Assembly (NCBI GenBank): GCA_035318965.1
Contig: DATHDR010000090.1
Location: forward strand, 1 to 30,678
DNA from: Verrucomicrobiia bacterium
GTDB lineage: Bacteria > Chloroflexota > Dormibacteria > Dormibacterales > Dormibacteraceae
Reading direction: 5' to 3'
DNA: 30,678 nt
This document shows positions 2,565 to 2,734 of the stretch, piece by piece. The position numbers were made by a program, and so were the translations under genes. Each line of letters opens with the position of its first letter. Position 1 is the stretch's first letter. The notes under the pieces were generated by a model. The model had not been told where the DNA came from, made no database searches, and worked only from the letters and a program-made list of their open reading frames with translations.

Positions 2565-2734
2565 CGCGAAATCCTCCGGTGAAGGACGAGCGGGCGGTAT
2601 CGGTCCGCCCAAACCAGGAGGACTGCTTCTTAGAAGCGCGCTCCGGAGGCGGCCGACGGCCGGGAATCGGTCATTGCAAGCTCAGTCATTCGAACGCCAC
2701 CTCCTGTTCTAGATTTCGTGGCCGCAGCCTACCA
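2565..2734 (-). promoter_or_regulatory. rsgA promoter and structured 5' leader (candidate translational attenuator)
   Basis: Extended -10 TG-G-TAGGCT (2734-2726); anti-SD CCTCCTG (2621-2615); hairpin GGGCGG-ACCGATA-CCGCCC (2610-2592); 5' arm CGAAATCT (2718-2711) complementary to GGATTTCG (2574-2567). Confidence 0.6.
2630..2689 (-). CDS. Candidate leader peptide (uORF) MTELAMTDSRPSAASGARF upstream of rsgA
   Basis: ATG 2689 to TAA 2630, with a strong SD AGGAGGT at 2705-2699; lies wholly inside the rsgA 5' region. Confidence 0.6.
   Translation of the reverse strand: MTELAMTDSRPSAASGARF

Follow-up and report, generated by a model that had tools for sequence, protein, structure and literature searches.

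The DNA examined here, which we call the window, is a 30,678-nucleotide (nt) contig (DATHDR010000090.1, assembly GCA_035318965.1) from a member of the Dormibacteraceae (Chloroflexota; Dormibacteria), a family of uncultured bacteria of soil, that is named Verrucomicrobiia bacterium in GenBank. On its minus strand, 170 nt (2565-2734) separate the stop codon of ech from the start of the GTPase gene rsgA. We consider it very likely that this spacer is a cis-regulatory leader of rsgA whose action depends on a short upstream open reading frame (uORF), and the leader most likely ties RsgA production to the performance of the ribosome. On balance, and with moderate confidence, we take the spacer to be a dedicated promoter followed by a four-segment leader-peptide attenuator resembling that of ermC, which would be opened when a ribosome occupies the start or the early codons of the uORF. 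That occupancy of the start is the actual trigger is a tentative assignment, to which we give somewhat less than an even chance, and both the sign of regulation and the physiological trigger are points that we infer.

The elements of the leader, all on the minus strand, are as follows. A sequence-only reading of the window had listed a number of them, and every element that it named is present on direct reading of that strand.

2734-2726, minus strand: extended -10 promoter element, TG-G-TAGGCT (direct reading)
About 2719, minus strand: predicted transcript start, placed from the position of the -10 element
2706-2696, minus strand: Shine-Dalgarno (SD) sequence of the uORF, CAGGAGGTGGC, called SD1 and forming segment 1; CAGGAGG at 2706-2700, extended GGAGGTGGC at 2704-2696
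2689-2687 (ATG) to 2632-2630 (TAA), minus strand: uORF of 19 codons, MTELAMTDSRPSAASGARF (direct reading)
2662-2641, minus strand: uORF core, CGGCCGUCGGCCGCCUCCGGAG, codons RPSAASG, forming segment 2; near-invariant in relatives
2637-2625, minus strand: mini-hairpin GCTTC (2637-2633)-TAA-GAAGC (2629-2625), with the uORF stop in its loop
2627-2612, minus strand: anti-SD, AGCAGUCCUCCUGGUU, forming segment 3a; TCCTCC at 2622-2617, then TGGT; its partner according to RNAduplex is the rsgA SD with the spacer behind it
2610-2592, minus strand: central hairpin (hairpin f), GGGCGG (2610-2605), loop ACCGATA, CCGCCC (2597-2592); the 5′ strand is segment 3b and the 3′ strand is part of segment 4
2581-2565, minus strand: remainder of segment 4, consisting of the rsgA SD (SD2), CCGGAGGA, at 2579-2572 and its spacer
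2564-1506, minus strand: rsgA coding sequence, 352 amino acids, UUG start at 2564-2562, matching TIGR00157

Taken by itself, the leader sequence folds no better than shuffles do (z = -0.51); strong evidence that it is more than chance comes from comparison. The leader is kept in all 26 orthologous loci examined (66-93% RsgA identity). Of 151 Dormibacteraceae genomes, 83 (from 14 of the 37 genera) each yield a single copy with a covariance model built from these 26 leaders, and the model gives no leader match in 146 other sampled genomes of the phylum. The model search and a pattern scan of species genomes together provided 79 distinct leader copies; two of these, L049 (G148) and L218 (G034), are from unpublished genomes, and no claim is made on them alone. 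A TANNNT -10 box stands at a fixed distance from SD1 in 78 of 78 copies, preceded by TG in 55 of them, and it is kept whether a palindromic insert, the 3′ end of ech or some other gene lies upstream. From this we conclude that the leader possesses a promoter of its own, as the sequence-only reading had supposed from the extended -10 element.

The leader is apparently undescribed as well as conserved. The window has no Rfam match at gathering score and only chance-level matches at E-values up to 10, and a comparison of the relatives' leaders with Rfam, which the earlier reading had likewise envisaged, matched no family. A literature search found no description of an rsgA leader, of cis-regulation of rsgA, or of an RPSAASG peptide.

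Two side observations concern the distribution of the leader. Among the contigs of soil metagenome assemblies, those of many other strains match the window over the uORF core alone, and the summed contig depth has a sharp peak at 2636-2704. In addition, some relatives carry GC-rich palindromes of roughly 30 nt (CCCCTC...GAGGGG type) that are inserted at differing points of the leader without destroying it: between the hairpin and SD2 (L002, L015, L017), between the ech stop and the -10 element (L003, L012, L013), or after the uORF (L075, L085). These inserts resemble a family of miniature repeats belonging to the genomes in question.

About 77 of the 79 copies have an intact uORF, with start, frame, length and stop position all kept, which upholds the earlier identification of the frame. 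SD1 reads GGAGGUG in 66 of 71 leaders and lies 8-10 nt before the AUG. The uORF has 19 codons in 59 of 73 copies (range 17-21), its length variants comprise 14 in frame against 2 out of frame (L098, L068), and the stop falls exactly three codons past the core in 65 of 73. From these comparisons the frame is very probably translated. As in attenuators of the ermC type, a leader ORF with its own ribosome-binding site precedes the regulated gene.

Constraint within the uORF is concentrated in the core. Column conservation is 0.98 over 2662-2648, against 0.43-0.75 in the flanking coding sequence. The seven core codons are near-invariant, third positions included, and the alanine codon that follows them is free (GCG 24, GCT 23, GCC 10); the core is therefore constrained as RNA, and its residues may merely reflect that constraint. 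Outside the core, 13 synonymous and 34 nonsynonymous variant codons amount to almost neutral evolution, three-base periodicity is absent (codon-position entropies 0.81/0.98/0.88), and purifying selection is undetectable except at E3, T7 and A17, where change is mainly synonymous. We know of no arrest motif in the peptide, having considered SecM, TnaC, MifM, ErmBL/CL and others. We conclude that what has been conserved is probably the act and geometry of translation together with an RNA motif, rather than a specific arrest peptide.

The RNA motif in question has several potential partners. Within the core lie an anti-SD (CCUCC) and an SD-like CCGGAG. It also includes the complement of the central hairpin's 5′ strand, and the GGAGGUG of SD1 is complementary to GCCGCCUCC within it. 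In RNAalifold, the core pairs with 2624-2598, that is, with the anti-SD, the hairpin 5′ strand and the hairpin loop, a pairing absent from the sequence-only reading. In L078 and L086, the core has CCG in place of UCG and the hairpin strand correspondingly has CCGG in place of CCGA (U-A to C-G), and G-U intermediates are seen. The anti-SD and SD2 also change together by lineage (CUCCUCG/CGAGGAG, CCUCCC/GGGAGG). Hairpin f has an invariant 5′ strand, GCGGACCGA, facing a 3′ strand found in either of two registers (CCGCCC or GUCCGC).

Covariation was assessed with a permutation test that compares native- with swapped-partner duplex energies; the test ignores relatedness, so its results are supportive only. 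Within the family, native partners are better by 0.80 kcal/mol for anti-SD:SD2 (0/2000), by 0.43 kcal/mol for hairpin f (0/2000) and by 0.22 kcal/mol for the core and the hairpin 5′ strand (0/2000). No signal was obtained for SD1:core, for SD1:anti-SD, or for the 5′ end with the SD2 spacer. The pairing of the anti-SD with the rsgA SD and the central hairpin, both predicted in the sequence-only reading, are thus borne out, and two of its other proposals fare less well. A toggle in which SD1 competes for the anti-SD reaches 7 bp in this window only, since the relatives' CCTCCGCC gives 5 bp, and the proposed pairing of the transcript 5′ end with GGATTTCG shows no covariation either. The mini-hairpin around the uORF stop is real in this window and has compensatory variants in the closest relatives; as a general feature it was rejected, being no commoner than in shuffled controls by a strict test (14/72 against 0.14). 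What is found, then, is an rsgA SD sequestered in a conserved helix and a mutually exclusive helix that uses a segment of the leader ORF, both hallmarks of the ermC type.

The supported helices make up two exclusive states: a closed state, consisting of the hairpin and anti-SD:SD2, and a state in which the core takes both the anti-SD and the hairpin 5′ strand as partners. Constrained folding ensembles (n = 59 leaders) predict how a ribosome might shift the balance between them. In naked RNA, SD1:core costs 0.05 kcal/mol and anti-SD:SD2 0.3 kcal/mol, against 2.6 kcal/mol for the core with the hairpin 5′ strand. When the RNA is masked from SD1 to +13, as by an initiating ribosome, the core with the hairpin 5′ strand costs 0.26 kcal/mol and anti-SD:SD2 costs 3.1 kcal/mol.

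The mechanism that we favor can be described in terms of four segments, in which segment 1 is the SD and initiation region of the uORF, segment 2 the core, segment 3 the anti-SD with the hairpin 5′ strand, and segment 4 the hairpin 3′ strand with SD2. In naked RNA, 1 would pair with 2 and 3 with 4, so that both ribosome-binding sites would be closed. A ribosome on the uORF start or its first codons would free segment 2 to capture segment 3, and this capture would remove the anti-SD from the rsgA SD and UUG start. With a ribosome on the core, or with one that has terminated and gone, 3:4 would re-form. Synthesis of RsgA would accordingly be expected to rise when ribosomes load on the uORF and then start or progress slowly.

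The output of the switch in this window looks translational, because hairpin f has no U-tract here; the sequence-only reading had also noted that a U-tract is lacking, and no terminator-like site was found in the leader. A terminator after hairpin f was considered and rejected as a candidate, being absent here and inconsistent within the family.

Several observations weigh against the favored mechanism, beyond the disregard of relatedness in the swapped-partner test. Accessibility of SD2 was modelled with footprints at every uORF codon, with stop-codon footprints that differ in their 3′ limit, and with the alternative helix enforced. Opening the GGAGG costs 6.1 kcal/mol in naked RNA and 6.4 when the start is masked; the figure is 5.4 if the alternative helix is imposed and 4.6 for a ribosome at the stop, and across all modelled states, the supposed ON state included, it stays between 4.2 and 6.5 kcal/mol. 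Thermodynamics therefore gives neither the accessibility of the SD nor the sign of regulation. Pairing of segments 1 and 2 lacks covariation within the family because both sides are constrained, and the near-neutral evolution of the peptide outside the core means that a specific arrest peptide is not indicated. Runs labelled as RNA proved to be mostly DNA of relatives, 2636-2704 being the part most widely shared among strains. A further point is the composition control for the 2:3 pairing described below.

More distant rsgA leaders provide a second line of evidence. Leaders before the RsgA of other Dormibacteria families (about 50% identity) are missed by the covariance model, and yet 13 of 15 such genes have an SD and an ORF of 15-24 codons 60-110 nt upstream, against 1 on the reverse strand and 0.16 in shuffles. 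In these leaders, changes in SD2 are accompanied by changes in both anti-SD copies (GGGAGG with CCUCCC, for example). Across 18 Dormibacteria lineages, the swapped-partner differences are -1.38 kcal/mol for 1:2 (39/5000), -3.87 for 2:3 (0/5000) and -2.61 for 3:4 (1/5000); controls for composition, with the partners reversed, came to -1.09 (465/5000) for 2:3, and +1.30. As a side observation, two members of family f4 of the same class, L221 and L223, whose RsgA is 43-45% identical, have no uORF leader and a different upstream context; they may have lost the leader or represent another lineage of RsgA.

Beyond the class, 13 full-length orthologues represent other classes of the phylum, and 3 of them are preceded by a promoter-like site, GGAGGGGUGU, a uORF of 15-17 codons and two terminator-like hairpins. 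One of these three leaders, L226, is in GCA_001466665.1, which we take to be a Dehalogenimonas. In all three, the SD extension and the 5′ half of the terminator are the same word, and both complement the 3′ end of the uORF; masking the start flips the predicted fold to an antiterminator, and a ribosome at the stop favors the terminator. For distant taxa a close-homologue search reached only relatives of at least 80% identity, and a search of representatives was used in its place. Three contigs of unrelated composition (26, 33 and 58% guanine plus cytosine, GC) encode an RsgA that is 40-41% identical, preceded by a long gene-free stretch with an SD and a uORF of 23-24 codons; in one of them, L246, a terminator-like hairpin has a 5′ half complementary to the 3′ end of the uORF. 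The leader of L219 has a hairpin with a U-tract. An intrinsic terminator between the uORF and rsgA is thus absent from the window and present in L226, L227, L230, L219 and L246. In general, RsgA relatives of 40-50% identity have a like layout, in which the hairpin of segments 3 and 4 is in several cases a terminator with a U-tract, and an equivalent flip is predicted for them.

An alternative to a trigger at the uORF start is the one put forward in the sequence-only reading, namely that when slow termination or translation stress makes a ribosome pause on the uORF stop or close to it, this ribosome covers the anti-SD and the CCUCC of the core and thereby frees the rsgA SD. The geometry of the stop offers it some support. 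Besides the conserved distance from the core, the base just before the stop is always C, 2-16 nt separate the stop from the beginning of the anti-SD, and UGA is used once only (UAA 41, UAG 24), even though the neighbouring ech stop is TGA in 13 of 25 of the same genomes. The preference for UAA and UAG together with the invariant C could reflect either termination by a single release factor or an RNA constraint. In folding with and without ribosome footprints, a ribosome with the stop codon in its A site brings the lowest SD2 opening cost of all positions, from about 6.0 to 4.6 kcal/mol; at about 1.4 kcal/mol, however, the modelled effect is small. Against a pause at the stop, it is the distance from core to stop that is conserved, whereas that from stop to anti-SD varies; the last two or three uORF residues vary freely; and the SD1/anti-SD toggle has neither covariation nor more than 5 bp in relatives. 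Moreover, this alternative leaves the covariation-supported helix between the core and the hairpin 5′ strand without a role, and in the relatives of the terminator type a ribosome at the stop favors the terminator, which is the OFF state. We regard it as unlikely, although it deserves to be kept in mind.

A simpler possibility is plain translational coupling, whereby translation of the uORF unfolds the structure over SD2 and RsgA, begun at its UUG, is made as a fixed fraction with no sensing involved. The contrast between a uORF with a strong extended SD and an AUG and an rsgA with a sequestered SD and a UUG is what coupling would lead one to expect, as are an SD2 helix that is stable in all modelled states and an opening cost that is lowest with a ribosome at the stop. 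Coupling would not explain, however, why an invariant core has two alternative partners, why the uORF sequesters its own SD, or why relatives have a terminator/antiterminator layout, and the 55-70 nt between the uORF stop and the rsgA start are long for direct coupling. We consider this explanation improbable.

It is also conceivable that the switch is transcriptional in this organism, with hairpin f serving as a pause site or as a terminator that is weak or poor in U, and with its antiterminator formed by the core of the uORF. The covariation-supported pairing of the core with the hairpin 5′ strand would fit this idea, homologous positions in relatives hold terminator-like hairpins with U-tracts, and some Dormibacteraceae copies have GUCCGC followed by a U-run. 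Most members of the family, however, have only 3-4 U in the 10 nt past the hairpin, often after a 5-nt spacer, and the window itself has no terminator-like site. In addition, the anti-SD:SD2 helix, which spans the hairpin, covaries, and this helix would matter only in read-through transcripts. A transcriptional switch here is thus very improbable. Least probable of all is a trans factor (RsgA, a ribosomal protein or a small ligand) that binds the invariant GCGGACCGA and core, the reading frame being incidental: the nucleotide invariance of both strands does exceed any coding need and the peptide outside the core is weakly constrained, but the invariant strands are complementary to each other and undergo compensatory changes, no Rfam family matches, and SD, AUG, frame, length and stop survive sequence turnover, even in relatives without nucleotide similarity and from 26 to 70% GC.

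The regulated gene is as the sequence-only reading had described it, an rsgA-family GTPase: its product scores 147.9 bits with TIGR00157, against a curated cut-off of 100, PF03193 is recorded on its homologues, and the sources annotate it as ribosome small subunit-dependent GTPase A. The label of paralog given to it in that reading was mistaken. There is only one rsgA match in the source metagenome-assembled genome (85% complete), and most relatives also have one per genome; it is therefore the organism's RsgA.

The rsgA start codon in Dormibacteraceae leaders is UUG in 68 of 72 cases, GUG in 4 and never AUG, and UUG is also found in distant low-GC relatives (L227, L246, L247). So conserved a weak start codon on the gene for an assembly factor may itself be regulatory. 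Alignment of relatives identifies 2564 as the conserved start. The rsgA frame is open upstream as far as a TTG at 2612, so that ORF callers may add 16 codons across SD2 and the hairpin. A programmed frameshift from the uORF into the rsgA frame was considered and rejected: the frame is open for 39 codons upstream here and for 6 in G007, and it varies among relatives.

The gene upstream is of interest as context only:

3571-2735, minus strand: ech, enoyl-CoA hydratase gene (NCBIfam enoyl-CoA hydratase models), stop codon TAG at 2737-2735

The order ech-rsgA is preserved in most relatives. In six of them (L005, L015, L017, L018, L020, L027), an extra gene lies between ech and the rsgA promoter, with spacers of 300-650 nt, and these six still retain the promoter and leader; adjacency of ech and rsgA is therefore not part of the unit.

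The attenuators of ermC, ermB, cat and cmlA are the closest parallels in architecture. Like them, the rsgA leader includes a short ORF of about the ermC length (19 codons), served by an SD of its own, and a main-gene SD held in a hairpin, for one strand of which a segment of the leader ORF competes, so that the position of the ribosome on the leader would select the fold. There are three differences: (i) the regulated gene encodes a ribosome-assembly GTPase, not a resistance determinant; (ii) the part of segment 1 is played by the SD and initiation region of the uORF, so that its ribosome-binding site is itself sequestered; and (iii) the uORF has no known arrest motif, and its peptide is poorly conserved outside the RNA-constrained core.

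Other uORF systems resemble the rsgA leader in part. The terminator-bearing leaders (L226, L227, L230, L219, L246) are laid out like those of vmlR, bmrCD and the Listeria hflXr, in which a uORF and a terminator/antiterminator precede a gene whose product acts on the ribosome. The window differs from these in that its hairpin has no U-tract and its output looks translational, and RsgA differs in being an assembly factor rather than a rescue or protection factor. With regard to a trigger at the start codon, there is a precedent in the toiL-topAI system of Escherichia coli, in which tetracycline-stalled ribosomes at the uORF start codon relieve repression (PMC12121999). In both cases, occupancy of the uORF alters pairing around the downstream ribosome-binding site, the start position being the one favored by folding for the rsgA leader. 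The toiL uORF differs in having 8 codons and acting together with Rho termination inside topAI, and the two share no sequence relationship; moreover, the toiL-topAI switch has been demonstrated by experiment, whereas that of the rsgA leader is predicted.

A more specific version of the favored mechanism can be imagined. RsgA is a factor that completes maturation of the 30S subunit. The leader could conceivably be a direct sensor of 30S competence, in which subunits stuck on SD1, whether immature and without the RsgA checkpoint or arrested in initiation complexes ahead of elongation, hold the switch open and so raise RsgA. The UUG start would then provide a further level of control, since immature subunits proofread start codons less strictly, and the same logic would have been rebuilt with unrelated sequences before this type of RsgA in several phyla. 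We think this extension rather unlikely in its full form.

For annotation, the consequences are practical: gene callers never report the uORF, and with a frame that stays open ahead of the true UUG, the start of rsgA is easily misplaced.

Finally, we consider what the leader may mean for the regulation of ribosome assembly. To our knowledge, little has been established about the means by which bacteria adjust their supply of ribosome-assembly factors to demand. Two things make the rsgA leader interesting: its target is a 30S assembly GTPase, and the arrangement recurs across phyla. The presence of a putative uORF switch before the sole rsgA, together with similar leaders in other Chloroflexota and in unrelated low-GC contigs, suggests that RsgA output may be widely tied to ribosome performance through its own mRNA. 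Such an arrangement would bear on the question of feedback, from translation status or 30S maturation to the production of an assembly factor, and on whether RsgA joins HflX and the ABC-F proteins among the stress-inducible ribosome factors.

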